A stretch of 40,000 bases of DNA, from contig NZ_WPCF01000007.1 of assembly GCF_009741975.1 (NCBI RefSeq), positions 5,311-45,310 of the forward strand, in the 5' to 3' direction. Source of the DNA: Halobacterium sp. CBA1126 (lineage in GTDB: Archaea > Halobacteriota > Halobacteria > Halobacteriales > Halobacteriaceae). The notes under the pieces are model-generated. The model did no database searches. It was not told the DNA's origin and saw only the letters and a program-made list of their open reading frames with translations. The position numbers and the translations under genes were made by a program. Below, in pieces: positions 1,052-36,894 of the stretch. The stretch's first letter is position 1. Each line of letters opens with the position of its first letter.

Positions 1052-1052
1052 C
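1020..1052. repeat. 33-bp direct repeat, copy 1 (GGCAGGTAGTCGAGCGGACGCCGCTGGCGTAGC)
   Basis: Read directly; identical to 1113..1145. Covers the end of the radical-SAM ORF including its TAG. Confidence 0.95.
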
Positions 1053-1112
1053 GGGCTTTTTTAGCGTAGATTTTTGCGGCCGAGCGCAGCGAGGCCGGAA
1101 AAAGGTACACGT
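1053..1112 (+). repeat. T5/A5-flanked hairpin cassette, copy A (terminator-like)
   Basis: CTTTTTTAGCGTAGATTTTTGC (1056-1077), GGCC..GGCC palindrome, then GGAAAAAGGTAC. A near-identical motif is present in reverse orientation at 32025..32090. T-tracts occur on both strands between convergent genes. Confidence 0.8.
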
Positions 1113-1145
1113 GGCAGGTAGTCGAGCGGACGCCGCTGGCGTAGC
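1113..1145. repeat. 33-bp direct repeat, copy 2
   Basis: Identical to 1020..1052, offset 93 bp. Confidence 0.95.
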
Positions 1146-1559: not shown

Positions 1560-1810
1560 GGAAGCATCCGCGAGCGGGGGTTCTCTGAACCCCCGCGAAG
1601 CGGTTCACTTCGCGACCGAGCGTAGCGAGGGAGCGAAGGCCGACGACTGAACGGAGTCGTTCGAGAGAGCGAAGCTCTCTCGTGATGACGAGAGACGCCG
1701 CTGGCGTCTCTCGAACCACGAAGCGAAGTGAAGGCGGAGTGCTTTTTCCGCAAGTTTTTGCCGAACGGGGGTCGCCTGCGGCGACCCCCGTGCAGCGCAA
1801 AAAGTGCGCC
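1560..1810 (+). repeat. hairpin-mosaic intergenic repeat (includes cassette copy C at 1742..1804)
   Basis: Chain of perfect GC-rich hairpins at 1574-1596, 1643-1660, 1662-1682, 1690-1712 and 1766-1790. Collinear blocks are shared with the reverse complement of 13670..13925. Confidence 0.8.
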
Positions 1811-3061
1811 TTAGACGCCCGTGCTGTACCGCAGCAGGCCGGCGATGCCGCCGAAGGCGGTGAGCAGCTGTTCGCCCTTCTCGAAGTCGGTGGAGATGAA
1901 GTGGGTGTCCGTGCCGCGCTGTTCGGCGATCTCCATGAGGTGGTCGATGGCGTCGTCGCGCTCGTCGACTTCGGCGTCCTCGCCGCACTCCGAGCAGGTG
2001 TGTTCGGGGGTGTCGGCGCGCTGGCTGACGAGTTCGCGTTCCTCGTGGCCGTTCGGGCACTCGTAGGTGACGACGTCCTTCCGGAGGTCCTCGGAGATGA
2101 GCAGCGTCTCCACGGAGCCCATGACGAGGTTCTTCCGCGTGGGCTCGAAGCCGTAGGTGGCGAGGTCGCCGCCGTTGAGCTCCTGGAAGAACTCCTCCAT
2201 GTCGGACTTGTCGTCCATCAGGTCGGCTTCCGCGAGCGTGTCCTGCGCGCGGTCGACGAGCTCCTTCAGGCCGGACTCGTCGGTGTAGGAGACGTCGAAC
2301 TTCCCGAGGACGTGGTCCTGGAGCTCGTGGTGGAGGTAGTCGCCGTCGAGGAACTCGTCTTTCGTCGGCGACGGGCCGCCGACGAGGATGCCGTCGAGTT
2401 CGTGGCGCTTCGGGACGAAGAGGTCGTCGGCCATCCCGGCGACCTCCTGGTAGAAGTTGTCGATGGCTTCCAGCCGGAGGCGGGCGAACCGCTGTGCGGA
2501 CTGGCCGCCCTTCCGCTGCTTGCCGGGGACGAGGCTGGACGCGGACTTGACGGCCTCGATGCGCTTGCCCTTCAGCCAGCCGACGTTGGCTTCGCGGCGA
2601 TCGAGGACGATGAGCCCGTAGAGGCCCTTGTCCCCGAGCATCTCCTCGAGGGGTTCGGTGAGGAACTCGTCGTCACAGTGGTAGCGGAACGACTGGATCT
2701 CCTGTGGCGGGGACTCCAGGACCTCCGTCACCATCTCCGTGCGGCCGCCGCCGGTGTCGACCGCGCCGGAGAAGACGACGAGGCCGTTCTCGGGCGGGAA
2801 CGTGTCGTAGTACCGCAGCCGGTCCTTGATTGACTTCAGCGCGTCCTGGACGTTCGTCCGGGTCTGCTTGGACTTGATGTTGGAGGCTTCCGAGTGCTCC
2901 TGCGTGACGTGGGCGACGACGTCCGAGATCTGCTTGTCCGGGGGGATGTAGATGGTCACCAGCTGGGTGCCGCTCCCGGTGTAGTCCTTCAGGTCCTCGA
3001 TGACCTTCTGGAACTCGTACTTCCGGCGGTCCTCGGACGGTGCGCCCTCCTGCTCGCTCAT
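1811..3061 (-). CDS. prf1: peptide chain release factor aRF1
   Basis: Within ORF 1811..3166; ATG (cat 3059-3061) gives MSEQEG.... NIKS motif (SNIKSKQTR) and GGQ motif (RKGGQSAQRF); about 416 aa. Confidence 0.95.
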   Translation of the reverse strand: MSEQEGAPSEDRRKYEFQKVIEDLKDYTGSGTQLVTIYIPPDKQISDVVAHVTQEHSEASNIKSKQTRTNVQDALKSIKDRLRYYDTFPPENGLVVFSGAVDTGGGRTEMVTEVLESPPQEIQSFRYHCDDEFLTEPLEEMLGDKGLYGLIVLDRREANVGWLKGKRIEAVKSASSLVPGKQRKGGQSAQRFARLRLEAIDNFYQEVAGMADDLFVPKRHELDGILVGGPSPTKDEFLDGDYLHHELQDHVLGKFDVSYTDESGLKELVDRAQDTLAEADLMDDKSDMEEFFQELNGGDLATYGFEPTRKNLVMGSVETLLISEDLRKDVVTYECPNGHEERELVSQRADTPEHTCSECGEDAEVDERDDAIDHLMEIAEQRGTDTHFISTDFEKGEQLLTAFGGIAGLLRYSTGV

Positions 3062-3198: not shown

Positions 3199-4041
3199 AT
3201 GACTGGACGCGTGTTCGCCGTCGCCTCCGGGAAGGGCGGCGTCGGCAAGACGACGACTGCCGTGAACCTCGCGGCGGTGATGGCGGAGGCGGACCGCTCG
3301 GTCGTGCTCGTGGACTACGACCTCGGGATGGCGAACGTCGGCGCCGTCCTCGACGTGGAGCCCGCGGAGGCGACGCTCCACGACGTGCTCGCCGGGGACG
3401 CGGACGCGCTGGACGCCGTAGCGGAAGCGCCCGGGGAGTTCGACGCGATGGTCGGCGGCACGGACATCGAGGACTTCGGGCGCGCGGACCCGTCGAAGCT
3501 CCGCGAAGTCGCCGAGGACCTCCGCGAGGAGTACGACGTCACCATCGTGGACACGGGCGGCGGCCTCAGCCACGACACGACCGTCCCGCTCGGCCTCGCC
3601 GACGACGTACTGTTGGTGTCGACGCCGCAGGTCGCGGCGCTGGAGAACACCGCGAAGACCCTGGACCTCGTCGAGCGCGTCGGCGGCGACGTCGAGGGCC
3701 TGATTCTGACCCGGGTCGGCGGGGCGGCCGTCGACGTCGACGAGGCCGTCGAGCGCGTCGACGCGCCGCTGCTCGGGACGATTCCCGAGGACGGCGCGGT
3801 CGCCGACAGCGAGGCGGCGGGCGAGCCGCTGGTCGTCTACGCGCCCGAGAACCCGGCCGCGCAGTCGTACCGGGAACTCGGCTACGAGCTCCTCGGCGAG
3901 TCGCCGCCGGTGTCGTTCCGGGACGGCGACGAGGACGGCGAGGTGTCCGCGGGCGCGGCGTTCGCGGAGGTCGCCGACGAGCAGGCGGAGGCGGACAACG
4001 AGTCGCTGCTGTCGCGGCTGACGGGCGGCCGGCTCGGCTGA
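3199..4041 (+). CDS. MinD/ParA-family P-loop ATPase
   Basis: Deviant Walker A VASGKGGVGKTTTAVNLA; MinD-like body followed by an acidic C-terminal extension. Confidence 0.85.
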   Translation: MTGRVFAVASGKGGVGKTTTAVNLAAVMAEADRSVVLVDYDLGMANVGAVLDVEPAEATLHDVLAGDADALDAVAEAPGEFDAMVGGTDIEDFGRADPSKLREVAEDLREEYDVTIVDTGGGLSHDTTVPLGLADDVLLVSTPQVAALENTAKTLDLVERVGGDVEGLILTRVGGAAVDVDEAVERVDAPLLGTIPEDGAVADSEAAGEPLVVYAPENPAAQSYRELGYELLGESPPVSFRDGDEDGEVSAGAAFAEVADEQAEADNESLLSRLTGGRLG

Positions 4042-4081
4042 ACGGGAACAATTAAGCGAGTACGGCCGCGGAGTGTCGACC

Positions 4082-4183
4082 ATGGCAAACGAGAACTCCG
4101 TCTCGACCGGCTGGCTGGTCGTCTACGTCGTGGTCGCGTTGCTCGTCGTCTACGGGTCGCTGGTGTTCGTCGGCGCGCTGTAA
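4082..4183 (+). CDS. possible 33-aa single-pass membrane micro-protein
   Basis: ATG 4082 to TAA 4181-4183: MANENSVSTGWLVVYVVVALLVVYGSLVFVGAL. One clear hydrophobic helix. Below the ORF-track cutoff; no homology can be asserted. Confidence 0.3.
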   Translation: MANENSVSTGWLVVYVVVALLVVYGSLVFVGAL

Positions 4184-4188
4184 CTGTT

Positions 4189-5942
4189 CTACATCGACTC
4201 CGGGGCTTCGATGCCGAGGACGTCCAGCGCGTTCGCCAGCGTGCGCCGCGCCGCGGTCACGAGCGCGAGGCGCGCGGCCGCCACGTCGTCGTCGACGTCC
4301 TCGCCGAGGACGTGCCGCGAGCGGTAGAACGCGTTGAACACGTCCACGAACTCGCGCGCGAACGTCGCGACCTGGTGTGGTTCGCGTTCGGCGGCGGCTT
4401 CCTCGACGACGCCCGGGAACCGCGCGATGGCCTTCAGGAGGTCGCGCTCCTCGGGCGTGTCGAGGAGGCCGGCGTCTAGTTCGGGCTTGAGGCCGTCGGC
4501 TTCCGCCGCGATGCCGCAGGCGCGGGCGTGGGCGTACTGGACGTAGGGCGCGCTCTGCCCCTCGAAGTCGAGGGCGTCCTCCCAGTCGAACGTGATGGCC
4601 TTCGTGGGCTGCTTGGAGACGATGTCGTAGCGCACCGCGCCGATGCCGACCTGCCGGGCGATGCGTTCGACGTCCTCGTCGGTGAGGTCGTCGCCGCGGA
4701 TGCGGTCGTCCAGCCGGGAGCGGACGGCCTCCTCGGCGCGCGCGACGGCCTCGTCGAGCAGGTCGTCCATGTCGACGCCCGTCCCCTGCCGGGTGCTCAT
4801 CGACTCGCCGCCCGGGAGGTTCACCCACGCGTAGAACACCTCTTCGAGGCGGTCCGTGTCGTTCCCGAGGATGTCGAGGGCGGCGTTGAGCTTGTTCGCG
4901 TGCAGCTCCTGGTCCTCGCCGAGCACCGTGATGGCGTAGTCGAACGCCTCGAACTTCCACTCGTGGTGGGCGAGGTCCCGCGTCGTGTACAGCGTGGTGT
5001 CGTCCGAGCGCAGGAAGACGAACGACTGCTCGATGTCCCACGCTTCGAGGTCGAGCTGCCACGCGCCCTCCTCGCGGAAGGCGTGCTCGGAGTCCCGGAG
5101 GTCGTCGACGACGTCGTGCGTGGAGCCGTCACGGAGGAACCGCGTCTCCTTGACGAACTCGTCGAACTCCGCGGGGAGGCGCCCGAGGGTCTCCCGCATC
5201 CCGCCGAGCACCTGGTCGACGACGGTCTCGACGCGCTCGTAGGTCTCCTCGTCGCCGGCGTCCAGCCCCTCGATGATGGCCGCAATCTCTTCTTCGGCCT
5301 CCTCGACGGCCTCGGGGTCGCCCTCCTCGAGGAACTCGTTGCCCTTCCGGTAGTAGCGCACGAGCTCGTAGTCGGGCTTCTCGCGCTCGGGCTCGGGGAG
5401 GTCGCGCTCGTCGAAGGTCTCGTACGCCCACGTGAACACGGCCATCTGGCGGCCGGCGTCGTTGACGTAGTACTCGCGGGTGACGTCGTGGCCGGCGTAG
5501 TCGAGGACGCGAGCGAGCGCGTCGCCGAGAATCGGGTTGCGGGCGCGGCCGACGTGGACGGGCCCCGTGGGGTTCGCGCTCGTGTGCTCGACGACGACCG
5601 ACTGGCCGGTGTCCGGGAGCCGGCCCCACTCCTCGGACTGGGCGTCGGCGAGCGCGCCGTCGAAGTACGCCTCGCTGGGCGAGAAGTTCACGTACGGGCC
5701 CTGCGTGGACGCCTCGGCGACGTACTCGGCGTCCGAGAGGTCGACGCGTCGGCGATTTCGGCGGCGACCTCCGGCGGCGGCGCCTGCGCCTCGCCGGCGA
5801 GTCGGAACGCCACGCTGGACGCGAGCACGGCGGGCACGTCCGCGGGCGGTTCCTCGATGCCGAGGTCCTCGGTCGGGTAGCCGAGGTCGCCGAGGGCGGC
5901 GTCGAGGGCCGCCTCGACTTCGCGGCGGAAAGCGATGAACAT
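4189..5942 (-). pseudogene. argS: arginine--tRNA ligase, reading frame broken once at about 5746-5747 (probable sequence error)
   Basis: Catalytic and anticodon-binding body in ORF 4189..5691 ([17 protein letters not shown]). The N-terminal domain [33 protein letters not shown]... is in another frame (tail of ORF 5688..7325, ATG = cat 5940-5942). The frames join at sense GCC GAC GC|GTC GAC, one nucleotide short. Confidence 0.9.
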
Positions 5943-13125: not shown

Positions 13126-13669
13126 ATGGGTCTCGCAGCGACGGTCGCGACCGCAGTCTGGGTGATGCTGCCCGCCTACGTCCCCAACAACGCCGCGGTG
13201 CTCGCGGGCGGCGGCCGCCCCATCGACGGCGGCCGCACGTGGGGCGGCAAGCGCGTGCTCGGCGACGGGAAGACGTGGCGCGGCACCGCCGTCGGAACCC
13301 TCGCCGCGTCGCGCTCGCGCTCGCCCTGAACGCCGTCGAACACGCCGCCAGCGACGCGCTCGACGTCGCGCTCCCGGCGTTCCCACCCGCCGCGATGGTC
13401 GCGCTCCCCGCCGGCGCGATGCTCGGCGACGTCCTCGCCTCCTTCCTCAAGCGCCGCACCGGCCGCGAACGCGGCGCCGCCTTCCCCCTCCTCGACCAGC
13501 TCGACTTCGTCGTCGTCGCGCTCGCGCTCGCCGCCGTCGCCGCCCCCGCGTGGTTCGGCGCCACCTTCACCCTCGACGTCGTCGTCGCCATCCTCGTGCT
13601 CACCCCGCTGCTGCACGTCCTCACCAACGGCATCGCTACCTGCTCGGCCTGAAGCACGAGCCGTGGTGA
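13126..13669 (+). pseudogene. carS: CDP-archaeol synthase, frame broken twice (about 13306-13307 and 13635-13636); probable sequence errors
   Basis: Three frame segments: [36 protein letters not shown]...[15 protein letters not shown], then VALALALN...GAMLGDVLASFLKRRTG...LLDQLDFVV...LTNGIA, then YLLGLKHEPW*. Each junction leaves a 2-nt GC remnant. Confidence 0.75.
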
Positions 13670-13925
13670 GCGACCGTTTGCGCTGCGTTCGGCGCGCTTC
13701 GCGCGCCTCACTCGGCAAAAGCTCGGCCAAAAGCACTCCACGGCTCCAGCGCACCGCTTCGCGGTGCTTAGTCGCTCGTCGGCCCGCGCTCCCTCACTGT
13801 GTCCGGTCGCGGAGTGAACCGCTTCGTTCGGGTTCTTCGAACCGCTCACGGGTCACTCCGTTCCCCGTTCGCGCAAACCGAGGCGCTCGTCCCTCGCGCC
13901 TCGTGCCGCTCACTCGCGGATGCCT
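13670..13925 (-). repeat. hairpin-mosaic intergenic repeat, inverted copy of 1560..1810 (degenerate cassette D at about 13672..13738)
   Basis: The reverse complement shares ordered blocks with 1560-1810: GCATCCGCGAG, GAAGCGGTTCACT(T/C)CGCGACCG, GAGGGAGCG..GGCCGACGA, GGAGTGCTTTT, TTTTGCCGA, GCAGCGCAAA. Hairpins at 13691-13707, 13751-13767 and 13880-13902. Confidence 0.8.
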
Positions 13926-14002
13926 GTCACTGCTGGTCTCATCGCCGACAGAGTTAACACGGAGTGTAAGGTATACTTTACTGTAAAGCGAACTTTCCAC
14001 CC

Positions 14003-29511: not shown

Positions 29512-29593
29512 GCCGGGATGGCCGAATGGCAAAGCGCACGCCTGGAAAGCGTGTCCCCTTACGGGGTTCAGGGTTCAAATCCCTGTCCCGGCG
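29512..29593 (+). tRNA. tRNA-Ser (anticodon GGA)
   Basis: Folded by hand. Acceptor GCCGGGA/TCCCGGC, discriminator G. Anticodon arm CACGC-CTGGAAA-GCGTG, long variable arm (TCCCCTTACGGGGT), T arm CAGGG-TTCAAAT-CCCTG. CCA is not encoded. Confidence 0.9.
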
Positions 29594-30293: not shown

Positions 30294-31964
30294 ATGGCAC
30301 AACAACAGCAGCGGATGCAGGGTCAGCCCATGATCATCATGGGCGACGACGCCCAGCGCGTGAAGGACAAGGACGCCCAGGAGCACAACATCTCCGCGGC
30401 GCGAGCGGTCGCGGACGCCGTCCGCTCCACACTCGGCCCGAAAGGGATGGACAAGATGCTCGTCTCCTCGATGGGCGACGTCACCATCACGAACGACGGC
30501 GTCACCATCCTCCAGGAGATGGACATCGACAACCCGACCGCGGAGATGATCGTCGAAGTCGCCGAGACCCAGGAGGACGAGGCCGGCGACGGCACGACGA
30601 CCGCGGTCGCCATCGCGGGCGAACTCCTCAAGAACGCCGAGGAGCTCCTCGAGCGCGACATCCACCCGACCGCCATCATCAAGGGGTACAACCTCGCCGC
30701 CGAACAGGCCCGCGAGGAAGTCGACAACGTCGCCATCGACGTCGACCCCGACGACGAGGACCTCATCCGCAGCGTCGCGGAGACCTCGATGACCGGCAAG
30801 GGCGCCGAGCTCGACAAGGAGCTGCTCTCCGGCATCATCTACGACGCCATCAACCAGGTCGCCGTCGAAGCCGCCGACGGCAGCACGGTCGTCGACGCCG
30901 CGAACATCAACGTCGAGACCCAGACCGGCCGCGCGGTCGGTGACTCCGAGCTCCTCGTCGGCGCCGCCGTCGACAAGGACCCGGTCCACGACGAGATGCC
31001 CACGGACGTCGAGGACGCGAAGATCCTCCTCCTCAACGAGGCCATCGAAGTCGAGGAAGCCGAAGCCGACACCTCCGTCAACATCGAGAGCCCCGACCAG
31101 CTCCAGCAGTTCCTCGACCAGGAAGAGGAACAGCTCAAGCAGAAGGTCCAGCAGATCAAGGACACGGGCGCCAACGTCGTCTTCTGCCAGAAGGGCATCG
31201 ACGACATGGCCCAGCACTACCTCGCGAAGGAGGGCATCCTCGCGGTGCGCCGCACCAAGAAGTCCGACATCGAGTTCCTGACGAACGTCCTCAACGCGTC
31301 GGTCGTCACGGACCTCGACTCCGCGACCGAGGCCGACGTCGCCACCGGCTCCGTCTCTCGCGACAGCGAGGACGAGCTGTTCTACGTCGAAGGCGACGAC
31401 GAGGACGCCCACGGCGTCACCATCCTCCTGCGCGGCTCCACCGACCACGTCGTCGACGAGCTCGAGCGCGGCGTCACTGACGCCCTCGACGTCTCCGCGC
31501 AGACGCTCTCGGACGGCCGCGTCCTCCCCGGCGGCGGCGCCATCGAAGTCGAAGTCGCCGACCGCCTCCGCGACTACGCGGACTCCGTCTCCGGCCGCGA
31601 GCAGCTCGCCGTCGAAGCGTTCGCGGACTCGCTGGAGCTCGTGCCGCGCGTGCTCGCCGAGAACGCCGGCCTCGACTCCATCGACACGCTCGTCGACCTG
31701 CGCTCCGCCCACGAATCCGGCGAGGAGCGCACCGGCCTGAACGTGCTCTCCGGCGACCTCGAGGACACCTTCGAAGCCGGTGTCGTCGAGCCCGCACACG
31801 CCAAAGAGCAGGCCGTCACGAGCGCCTCCGAGGCCGCGAACCTCGTGCTCAAAATCGACGACATCATCTCCGCCGGCGACCTCTCCACCGACAAGGGCGA
31901 CGACGAAGGTGGCGCCGGCGGCATGGGCGGCGGTATGGGCGGCGGCATGGGCGGCATGATGTAA
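30294..31964 (+). CDS. ths: thermosome subunit (group II chaperonin)
   Basis: ORF 30213..31964, ATG 30294 ([16 protein letters not shown]). [25 protein letters not shown] and VLPGGGA motifs; C-terminal [15 protein letters not shown] tail. Confidence 0.95.
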
Positions 31965-31987
31965 AATCGGTCTGAGACCGATTTTAC
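31961..31987 (+). terminator. perfect 12-bp-stem hairpin overlapping the thermosome stop codon, ending in a T-tract
   Basis: GTAAAATCGGTC-TGA-GACCGATTTTAC; the stem includes the TAA at 31962-31964. Confidence 0.5.
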
Positions 31988-32024
31988 AGCAGCCGACGGA
32001 GCTCCGCTCAGTCGGAATGATGTA

Positions 32025-32090
32025 GTACCTTTTTGCCACGCTCGGCGCGCTCGGCGCGCCGTCGCTGGCAAAAAGCTACGCTAAAAAGCG
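32025..32090 (-). repeat. T5/A5-flanked hairpin cassette, copy B (inverted relative to copy A)
   Basis: The reverse complement reads GCGCTTTTTAGCGTAGCTTTTTGCCA...TGGCAAAAAGGTAC. Copy A reads GGGCTTTTTTAGCGTAGATTTTTGCGG...CCGGAAAAAGGTAC. Confidence 0.85.
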
Positions 32091-32300
32091 CCGTCACCCA
32101 CCTTCGGTGGGTTCGCGCCCGAGCGCTCCGCGCTCGGTGAATCGCGCGGCTCCGCCGCGCGAATGCTACCCGTTCCGCGTCGCACCGCTTCCGCGTCGCT
32201 TCGCGCTGCACCGCTCGCTGGCTATCTCGTCTTTCTTTCGGCGCTCGTCGGGTAGCGGCGGCTCAGTCGTTCGGGTGGTCGTCGAAAGAGTGGGTCTGCG

Positions 32301-36687: not shown

Positions 36688-36699
36688 ACCGCTACTCCG

Positions 36700-36835
36700 A
36701 GCGACGCCGAAAAAAGCACGACGGTTGCGAGGGCGCGAAGCGCCCTCGGAGACGCGAGCGGCGACCGGAGGGAACCGCGAGCTACGGGAGGCACAGCCGC
36801 CTCGGAAGTACGACCCGCAAAAAGAGGGCGTCGCC
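36700..36835. repeat. degenerate member of the hairpin-mosaic family between aceB and trm1
   Basis: GAAAAAAGCAC at the left end (reverse complement of the GTGCTTTTTT motif), hairpin GAGGGCGC-GAA-GCGCCCTC (36729-36747), and CCGCAAAAAG at the right end. Confidence 0.45.
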
Positions 36836-36894
36836 GTTGATGCCGACGGCGAGCGGTGCGGCCGCGGGCGGGTGAGCACGTCCGCGTACGGCCG

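Follow-up and report, generated by a model that had tools for sequence, protein, structure and literature searches.

The spacer that follows the aRF1 gene in Halobacterium sp. CBA1126 is a composite of short palindromic modules. It occupies 332 bp (1479-1810) of the DNA analysed here, a 40,000-nt stretch of contig NZ_WPCF01000007.1 (positions 5,311 to 45,310) that is called the window below. The flanking genes are both on the minus strand: aRF1 itself (1811-3061, stop codon TAA at 1811-1813; Pfam eRF1_1/2/3) and the zinc-ribbon gene DUF7571 (1208-1478), each identified from the list of open reading frames (ORFs) and by exact-protein look-up. The spacer contains a hairpin-rich repeat unit of about 240 nt, which ends in a T-tract/hairpin/A-tract cassette, and a 62-nt double-hairpin (DH) element, which is a later insertion within the repeat unit. 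DH belongs to a family with members in other haloarchaeal genomes and its insertion boundaries are defined by empty sites; hairpins and cassettes are polymorphic among relatives, and the palindromes bear a DNA-type signature. Rather than a single structure, the spacer as a whole is fairly probably a stack of palindromic repeat elements, short and non-coding, such as build up in haloarchaea immediately 3' of genes.

Four perfect palindromes with 3-nt loops, which have no strand of their own, dominate the region. These are GCGGGGGTTC-TCT-GAACCCCCGC (1574-1596, 10 bp), CGAGAGAGC-GAA-GCTCTCTCG (1662-1682, 9 bp; DH hairpin 1), CGAGAGACGCC-GCT-GGCGTCTCTCG (1689-1713, 11 bp; DH hairpin 2) and ACGGGGGTCGCC-TGC-GGCGACCCCCGT (1765-1791, 12 bp, between the T and A tracts). 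A preliminary description of the region, made from the sequence alone, had listed these palindromes and read them as a mosaic; each was found where it had been placed, and the mosaic is more than chance. In 1560-1810 there are four perfect stems with 3-nt loops and 9 bp or more, against a mean of 0.004 and a maximum of 1 in 2000 dinucleotide shuffles. Fold prediction, which had been suggested as a check, gives a z-score of about -8 for both strands of the same interval: the RNA minimum free energy is -143.8 kcal/mol on the plus strand (z = -8.4) and -137.8 kcal/mol on the minus strand (z = -8.2). Such palindromes occur 20 times per 100 kb in the whole window, half of them in this spacer; the rate is 5-6 per 100 kb in unbiased haloarchaeal DNA and about 0.7 in shuffles. 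A further pair from the preliminary list, ACGACT..AGTCGT (1643-1660), is present as a weak 6-bp stem, but it is a junction by-product rather than an independent palindrome, because its 3' arm consists in part of the first four bases of the inserted element. The apical heptamer GCGAAGC, singled out earlier as an unusually stable mini-hairpin, is not enriched window-wide (21 copies against 15.2 expected; 8 of 100 shuffles reach 21). GNA triloops, including GAA closed by C-G, do prevail among the loops of the DH family.

The DH element (1657-1718, plus strand) has the structure TCGTTCGAG-hairpin 1-CTCGTGATGACGA-hairpin 2-TCGAACCA; it is defined by empty sites, a covariance model (R1), a census, covariation and junctions. 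Orthologous relatives for comparison came from 80 aRF1 loci found in a metagenome scan. In L128 (94% aRF1 identity) the site is empty and reads GAACGGAG|CGAAGCGAAGTGA. The filled site in the window reads GAACGGAG[TCGTTCGAG...CTCGAACCA]CGAAGCGAAGTGA and is 62 nt longer; L125 (97% aRF1 identity) likewise has no DH. The empty and filled sites together place the element boundaries at 1657-1718. No target-site duplication accompanies the insertion, either in the window compared with L128 and L125 or in ISNph12 compared with HqIRS46. Among 109 distinct copies, nearly all have G as the last base of the left flank and C as the first base of the right flank, which indicates insertion at G^C. DH copies are 51-62 nt long and have terminal inverted repeats of the form T[C/G]GTTCGAGAG (TCGTTCGAGAG and TGGTTCGAGAG, with 10 of 11 positions matched).

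Searches beyond the window, with the tools proposed in the preliminary description, recover DH copies in many other haloarchaeal genomes, both by blastn and with the covariance model. A blastn search of plasmids with the spacer matches 22 from haloarchaea of many genera, over about 65 nt with 80-94% identity and always in unannotated DNA. These matches are confined to query positions 91-182 (window 1630-1721), mostly 1652-1721, which is DH with its immediate left flank; the rest of the repeat unit has no match among the plasmids. An exact scan for GTTCGAG-N12-30-CTCGTGATGACGA-N12-30-TCGAAC, with one genome per GTDB species, yields at least 120 stretches in more than 25 genera, including Halorubrum, Haloarcula, Natrinema, Halococcus, Natronomonas, Halolamina, Halovenus and Halosimplex. 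Of the stretches listed, all but a single chance match with long gaps come from Halobacteria. More than one copy is present in several genomes, and tandem pairs occur in Halorubrum coriense. Model R1 detects one copy in the window (1653-1722, 75.6 bits); in other genomes it detects diverged extra copies clustered within 100-200 nt of the primary copies.

Across the family, the linkers are invariant, as is the base of each hairpin. Towards the apex the hairpins vary yet remain paired: 98% of cells are paired, compared with 29-55% when the partner column is slid, and double changes are seen at seven pairs. A count of palindromes at the DH loci was inflated by runs of N (409 'NNN' loops) and was not used. 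All-against-all clustering of 348 neighbouring ORFs shows no protein family recurring beside DH, which rules out a protein that is always encoded next to it.

Some DH copies are found within other mobile elements. Around 10 of the 109 copies lie in near-terminal palindromes of IS605-type elements or of palindrome-associated transposable elements (PATEs), as in L102, L123, L029, L072, L068, L025, L095 and others. In L102 and L123, GCCTCGGGG[DH]CTTGACCCCGAGGCGATTCAC stands directly downstream of full TnpB ORFs that match Pfam OrfB_IS605, Cas12f1-like_TNB and HTH_OrfB_IS605; more distant TnpBs lie upstream of DH in L021 and L042. The 54-nt hairpin-loop insertion TCGTACGGAAGACGGAGTCTTCCGTGATGACGAGAGACGAAGTCCCTCGAACCA in the right end of ISNph12 relative to HqIRS46 (Table S9, PMC3119063) is also a DH element. 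In haloarchaeal IS200/IS605-type (IS1341/TnpB) elements, the end is the site of the sotRNA (sense overlapping transcript)/omega-RNA region (PMC4615843). Most DH copies have no IS605-type or TnpB neighbour. The possibility that DH represents the fused ends of a single insertion sequence with halves 1-2 kb apart was rejected; no isolated half-sites flank TnpB in about 1 Mb, and whole DH elements occur within a right-end hairpin.

Other copies interrupt genes. DH is found in frame, in either orientation, in gltB (L019 1507-1568), acyl-CoA synthetase (L089 416-483), dihydroorotase (L018 542-609) and GatA (L020 6907-6974). These insertions supply about 34-35 extra residues at exactly that point, as seen in alignments of GatA and dihydroorotase to solved structures. 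All of the in-frame copies are in other genomes; none is in the window.

The preliminary description held that arrays of this type are little characterised in haloarchaea. This is too strong, since PATEs and small mobile repeats (SMR) were described from Haloquadratum and Natronomonas in 2011 (Dyall-Smith, Pfeiffer et al., PMC3119063). PATEs are IS605-derived elements with near-terminal palindromes and without inverted repeats or duplications, and include terminal-only forms as short as 52 bp; SMR have inverted repeats, cause no duplication and insert into the palindromes of PATEs and IS605 elements, and their mobilisation was called enigmatic (PMC3119063). A 2024 census ranks haloarchaea as the archaea richest in MITEs (miniature transposable elements with inverted repeats; PMC11602168).

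Of these elements, the SMR of Haloquadratum walsbyi (HqIRS40-43 and HqIRS55) are similar to DH in several respects. They are short and non-coding, have terminal inverted repeats unrelated to known transposases, make no duplication and can occupy one site in either orientation; they also insert into the near-terminal palindromes of PATEs and IS605-type transposons, as about 10 of the 109 DH copies do. DH differs in being about half the size (51-62 nt against 80-300 nt), in having a defined two-hairpin core, in its spread over more than 25 genera, and in occurring also in ordinary spacers and in frame within genes; the HqIRS families were compared by description. Classical MITEs share terminal inverted repeats with DH but have the target-site duplication that DH lacks. 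Rickettsia palindromic elements (RPE) are likewise small palindromic repeats that lie in frame within genes and add a peptide segment; they belong to another domain of life, are unrelated in sequence and measure 100-150 bp. No description of a class-wide DH family, of its copies in genes or TnpB right ends, of the loop flips or of the gain and loss of cassettes was found in the searchable literature, and a literature search with the core strings returned unrelated primers only.

The hairpins behave as DNA palindromes, with the marks of palindrome dynamics rather than of a selected RNA fold. The stem pairs of 107 distinct DH copies comprise 1195 Watson-Crick, 12 G:T, 15 A:C and 17 other pairs, with no wobble excess and no strand asymmetry. 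The 3-nt loops are present in both orientations on identical stems (GAA 54 and TTC 35; GGA 18 and TCC 20; AAA 9 and TTT 13), and two thirds of them are GNA on one or the other strand. RNA-level selection on the DH hairpins was rejected on these grounds, as G:T pairs do not exceed A:C pairs and the loops run both ways. Close relatives display the same behaviour. Strain L001 is 99.4% identical to the window, and its only difference in the spacer is an inverted loop, TGC versus GCA, at 1777-1779. L126 and L127 differ by GAA versus TTC in the orthologous first hairpin after aRF1. Whole hairpins are also gained or lost: L001 (11981-12016) has 50 nt more than window positions 1081-1096, in a second cassette at 1052-1112, between 14-nt direct repeats GAGCGCAGCGAGGC. 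The extra DNA consists of two more hairpins, GAGGCGC-TCT-GCGCCTC and ACGGC-GAA-GCCGT, and the difference is a repeat-mediated indel.

Near-pure Watson-Crick stems, loops in both orientations and flips between near-identical strains thus point to palindromes at the DNA level. Template switching, minute inversions and repeat-mediated deletion are probably responsible. Minute hairpin-loop inversions are known from chloroplast non-coding DNA, and quasipalindrome mutagenesis is known from bacteria. The TGC/GCA and GAA/TTC flips, and stems that are kept complementary, are alike in kind; unlike those mutational processes, which do not define an element family, the events seen here act on members of a repeat family.

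The repeat unit that received DH (unit A, 1562-1803, plus strand) was aligned with a paralogue in the window and with the orthologous copies that follow aRF1 in L125-L130, L133/134 and L128. It has a sharp 5' boundary and the backbone AAGCATCCGCGAG ... GCGGTTCAC ... GGCCGACGACTGAACGGAG ... GCGGAGTGC-T5-N7-T5-GCCGA-hairpin-GCAGCGC-A5. The paralogue, unit B (13667-13934, minus strand; E = 8e-45), has the same blocks in the same order (AAGCATCCGCGAG; CGAAGCGGTTCAC; AGYGAGGGAGCG..GGCCGACGA; GGAGTGCTTTT-N8-TTTTGCCGA; GCAGCGCAAA), with differing hairpins between them and without DH. An orthologous unit, with other hairpins at fixed positions, follows aRF1 in relatives at 84-97% aRF1 identity (L125-L130, L133/134); it is lacking in more distant relatives. 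The imperfect hairpin TTCGC...GCGAA (1609-1637, plus strand) occupies a conserved position at which the orthologue stems differ yet pair (TCCAC/GTGGA, TGCG/CGCA, CGCCGCC/GGCGGCG). Orthologue stems differ at the 1765-1791 palindrome as well. A search with the unit alignment (nhmmer) finds diverged copies at other loci in Natronomonas, Natrinema (after a thermosome gene), Halolamina, Haloarchaeobius and Natronolimnohabitans.

The first module of unit A (1562-1608, plus strand) resembles the right end of an IS200/IS605 element, of the sort found in PATEs, although homology is not proven. It consists of the leader AAGCATCCGCGAG, the hairpin at 1574-1596 and the terminal GAAGCGGTTCAC (1597-1608). 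Layout and terminal GGTTCAC match the 3' ends of ISNph12, ISNph8 and ISNph20 (Table S9, PMC3119063), and terminal-only PATEs of 47-52 bp offer a parallel. A second copy of the module is on the minus strand at 13804-13826, and the hairpin with its terminal oligonucleotide (...TTCAC) is also present in unit B and in the orthologues. The 50-nt indel recalls the repeat-mediated core deletions of PATEs. IS605-type elements have been active at this very site: in L128 the unit is separated from aRF1 by an ISNph20-like IS605-type element with a 370-aa TnpB (3749-5453), inserted after TTAG, which is complementary to the aRF1 stop CTAA. A new stop (GTG TGA) is supplied by the element's right end, GTTCAC, and aRF1 is therefore unchanged in length. 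Unlike PATEs and IS605 elements, the unit has no conserved 5' target oligonucleotide, and it continues for 130-200 nt past the supposed right end. The preliminary description had suggested a link to an IS200-like Y1 transposase. The direction was right, in that one module resembles an IS200/IS605 right end and DH lies inside such ends beside TnpB genes; a TnpB gene itself was not found in 48 kb of this genome.

The conserved positions of the hairpins could also reflect an RNA. According to this alternative, which is considered unlikely, a gene for a small structured RNA, convergent to aRF1, occupies the plus strand of the unit (about 1562-1747) and has four internal hairpins and a double U-tract terminator. 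Its product would extend from AAGCAUCC to GGAGUGCUUUU on the plus strand, measure about 190 nt and be closed by a helix between the 5' end AAGCAUCCGC and the 3' end GCGGAGUGCUU; DH would be a tolerated insertion in one hairpin position. Several observations favour such a gene. Backbone and hairpin positions are kept, with stems that change while still pairing, over the range of 84-97% aRF1 identity. The 5' block of the unit pairs with its 3' block at -19.6 and -15.3 kcal/mol in the two window copies, T5-N7-T5 directly follows the 3' block on the same strand, the 5' boundary is sharp, and the plus-strand fold is as unusual as reported above. In addition, some Halorubrum relatives of the DH context have TTATAAAT boxes upstream. 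Against this, there is no TATA-like box at the right distance upstream of 1562, and the minus strand folds nearly as well as the plus strand. The pairing between the 5' and 3' blocks is weaker elsewhere, notably in L126 and L133. DH, the only hairpin family with enough copies for the test, shows no G:U excess. Loops invert and whole hairpins are gained and lost between near-identical strains.

The alternative outcome named in the preliminary description, a conserved RNA of a known family, is not borne out, since no Rfam family matches. In the window only tRNA reaches its gathering score in Rfam 15, and a permissive scan of 1000-1900 gives nothing relevant at E values up to 10. The window's sole Rfam or ARAGORN match is a tRNA-Ser(GGA) gene at 29512-29593.

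The 3' part of unit A is one of four T-tract/hairpin/A-tract cassettes in the window (1052-1112, 1742-1804, 13680-13740 on the minus strand and 32025-32092 on the minus strand). Strict cassettes are concentrated here; the same number, four, was found in 920 kb of other haloarchaeal DNA. The cassette beside aRF1 has a double T tract, T5-CCGCAAG-T5, on the plus strand (1743-1759; T5 at 1743-1747 and 1755-1759), which is a putative oligo-T terminator signal. Its A5 tract (1799-1803) is a T5 tract on the aRF1 strand, is kept in L125-L130 and is a likely terminator signal for aRF1. The preliminary description had placed a T5 tract shortly after the aRF1 stop and had called the cassette at 1742-1804 a second copy; the T5 lies 7 nt from the stop. 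A sister cassette, T6-AGCGTAGA-T5-hairpin-A5-GGTAC (1052-1112, plus strand), is immediately 3' of the stop codon of a radical-SAM gene, about 700 bp from the aRF1 cassette, with its T6 5 nt past that stop. Another sister, T5-AGCGTAGC-T5-hairpin-A5-GGTAC (32025-32092, minus strand), is downstream of the thermosome gene and has a 20-nt match (95%) to 1058-1077. The double-T format is repeated at 1057-1075, 13717-13732 (minus) and 32070-32087 (minus), and TTTTTAGCGTAGNTTTTTGC is common to two of the four cassettes.

The cassette at 1052-1112 is an insertion polymorphism. It is present in the window, L001 and L126 and absent from L127 and L125, in which the radical-SAM stop codon runs straight into the downstream DNA. 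In the window (1113-1144, plus strand) and in L001 the cassette is accompanied by a duplicate of the final 32 nt of the radical-SAM gene (1020-1051 in the window). L126 (about 4420-4640) has the cassette with a 62-nt duplicate of the gene end; its near-twin L127 has neither. Such polymorphism suggests that a terminator can itself be acquired as a unit.

Oligo-T tracts are the accepted signal for transcription termination in archaea. The cassettes carry T tracts on both strands, pointing inward, and on each strand a polymerase would meet the T tract first (T5 for aRF1, T5-N7-T5 on the plus strand) and the hairpin after it. From this arrangement, a cassette most likely acts as a bidirectional terminator. 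The T5 tracts within about 10 nt of stop codons and the double T tracts are typical of archaeal oligo-T terminators. The cassettes differ from plain terminators of this type in forming a recurrent T/hairpin/A package whose spacer sequence (AGCGTAGA, GGTAC) is conserved and which as a whole is subject to gain and loss.

A device that evolved in place, with hairpins and T/A tracts serving in termination or insulation or as a stabiliser of the 3' untranslated region, would explain part of this pattern. The elements are located at gene 3' ends, the T5 next to the aRF1 stop is kept in relatives, every cassette has T tracts on both strands, and the signal is an established one; the likeness between spacers would then be due to convergent selection. 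This explanation is improbable. Identities of 20-60 nt between unlinked spacers and between genera go beyond convergence, and clean insertions with empty sites and copies within coding sequences are left unexplained. The order of the parts is a further difficulty, because an efficient terminator that precedes the hairpin would leave the hairpin untranscribed.

A more far-reaching proposal, which we hold only tentatively, extends the stack of repeat elements to two mobile kinds. DH would be a class-wide family of ultra-small mobile palindromes in Halobacteria that inserts at G^C without duplication, by an undescribed mechanism, both in frame within genes and in the right-end/omega-RNA regions of TnpB elements. 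In the latter location it would act as a hyperparasite, with the possible effect of disabling or retuning the guide-RNA scaffold. The cassettes would be the second kind: bidirectional terminators that are portable and, on integrating at a stop codon, duplicate 31-62 nt of the gene end.

The preliminary description had likened the spacer to arrays of repetitive extragenic palindromes and bacterial interspersed mosaic elements (REP/BIME). Parts of this comparison are sound: the palindromic modules are extragenic, GC-rich, arranged in mosaic clusters with conserved linkers, biased to gene 3' ends and recurrent. Recognition of single-stranded hairpins by HUH-type enzymes is likely in both, both may have side roles in termination or mRNA stability, and there is a mechanistic kinship with IS200/IS605 elements. 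A true REP/BIME system, with palindromes multiplied by a dedicated REP-associated tyrosine transposase (RAYT, or TnpA-REP) encoded elsewhere in the genome, is nevertheless very improbable. The stems of the spacer's four hairpins are mutually unrelated, and recurrence is limited to DH and the linker blocks. These stems are perfect and enclose 3-nt loops, whereas REPs are imperfect; there is no single REP consensus, no conserved tetranucleotide head of the GTAG type and a low density of DH copies. No RAYT was seen within the 48 kb examined, where no search aimed at Y1 transposases was made. The haloarchaeal PATE and SMR repeats are the best place for the region; likening it to REP/BIME suits its look and perhaps its behaviour, and membership in a REP/RAYT system is not supported.

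If the spacer is a stack of repeat elements, they would be non-autonomous and would spread or turn over at the DNA level. The most plausible route is via single-stranded hairpin intermediates, handled in trans by an IS200/IS605-type (Y1/HUH) enzyme or by another enzyme. Perfect stems, inverted loops and the gain or loss of whole hairpins would probably result from template switching and repeat-mediated deletion. The elements may be tolerated because the site is a dead zone between two transcription units. The oligo-T tracts are most likely the actual terminators, for aRF1 on the minus strand and for anything arriving from the other side on the plus strand.

A number of observations weigh against this interpretation. 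Mobility was not directly observed within this genome, and tblastn finds no TnpB within 48 kb of it (TnpA was not searched for). The first module resembles IS605 right ends only in architecture and over a short stretch of about 10 nt. The 5' flanks of ten unit copies differ (GGA, ACG, GCG, ACA, CAG, TAC and others) and contain no conserved IS605-type target (TTAC, TCTAC or TTAG); membership of the unit among PATEs or IS605 elements is therefore not established. Complementarity between the flanks of DH does not exceed that of controls (best stem 4.46 and 4.65, respectively). Hairpin-loop targeting as a general property of DH was rejected on this basis, and it holds for the IS605 subfamily only. 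DH is also sparse: model R1 finds 0-1 (weak) copy in 447 kb of unbiased haloarchaeal DNA, which makes the family widespread but not dense. Viral contigs in IMG/VR give 0 exact-pattern matches, and viral carriage of DH was rejected accordingly. Finally, the position of the unit after aRF1 is kept across genera and its hairpin positions are maintained, which also fits a selected function as an RNA or a terminator.

Spacers in haloarchaea usually go unannotated. The analysis resolves this hairpin-rich one into searchable modules (the DH covariance model, the unit profile and the cassette pattern) that could be used for annotation throughout the class. DH provides an archaeal counterpart to REP and RPE repeats, and the effect of its insertions on TnpB/omega-RNA activity is directly testable. 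Loop flips and hairpin indels between strains that are 99.4% identical make polyploid, GC-rich archaea a natural system in which to study palindrome mutagenesis. Nothing here alters the picture of aRF1.

The preliminary description had reported that the modules recur in other spacers of the window; this holds for four of them, at 1052-1207, 13653-14002, 31965-32300 and 36689-36894. The spacer at 32090-32300 is hairpin-rich, with perfect 8-9-bp palindromes and 3-nt loops at 32043, 32119 and 32142. Nearby, the thermosome stop codon lies within a perfect 14-bp palindrome with a 1-nt loop, TGTAAAATCGGTCT-G-AGACCGATTTTACA (31960-31988), and is followed by more hairpins and the T/A cassette. The spacer at 36689-36894 is also hairpin-rich and contains CGAGGGCGC-GAA-GCGCCCTCG (36728-36748) with A6 and A5 tracts on either side. 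A reading of GTGATGA as a K-turn or C box was considered from the sequence and rejected, as neither stem has a partner GA strand beside it.

Two further repeat contexts were noted at DH loci. In Halorubrum (L011, L013, L024, L039, L065, L100, L115 and others), a long hairpin of about 200 nt, CCAAAGCCCCAGCCG...CGGCTGCCCCTTTGAG, has DH at its tip, with TTATAAAT boxes upstream of DH; DH is sometimes in tandem, and these long hairpins may be a transcribed repeat family. A second, distinct double-hairpin module, GGCGTTCACGAGAGC-GAA-GCTCTCGTGAGCCAATCAGAACGC-AAA-GCGTTCTGATGACGACGCA, adjoins the first kind at L039 3823-3889, L077 4933-4999, L024 6894-6960 and L061 681-747. A mini-hairpin with conserved feet, GCGAACGG(N)-loop-(N)CCGTGAGC, is present in the L001 cassette, in the window at about 13860-13880 (minus strand) and in L042, L128, L096, L026 and L033, and is often nested within other hairpins.

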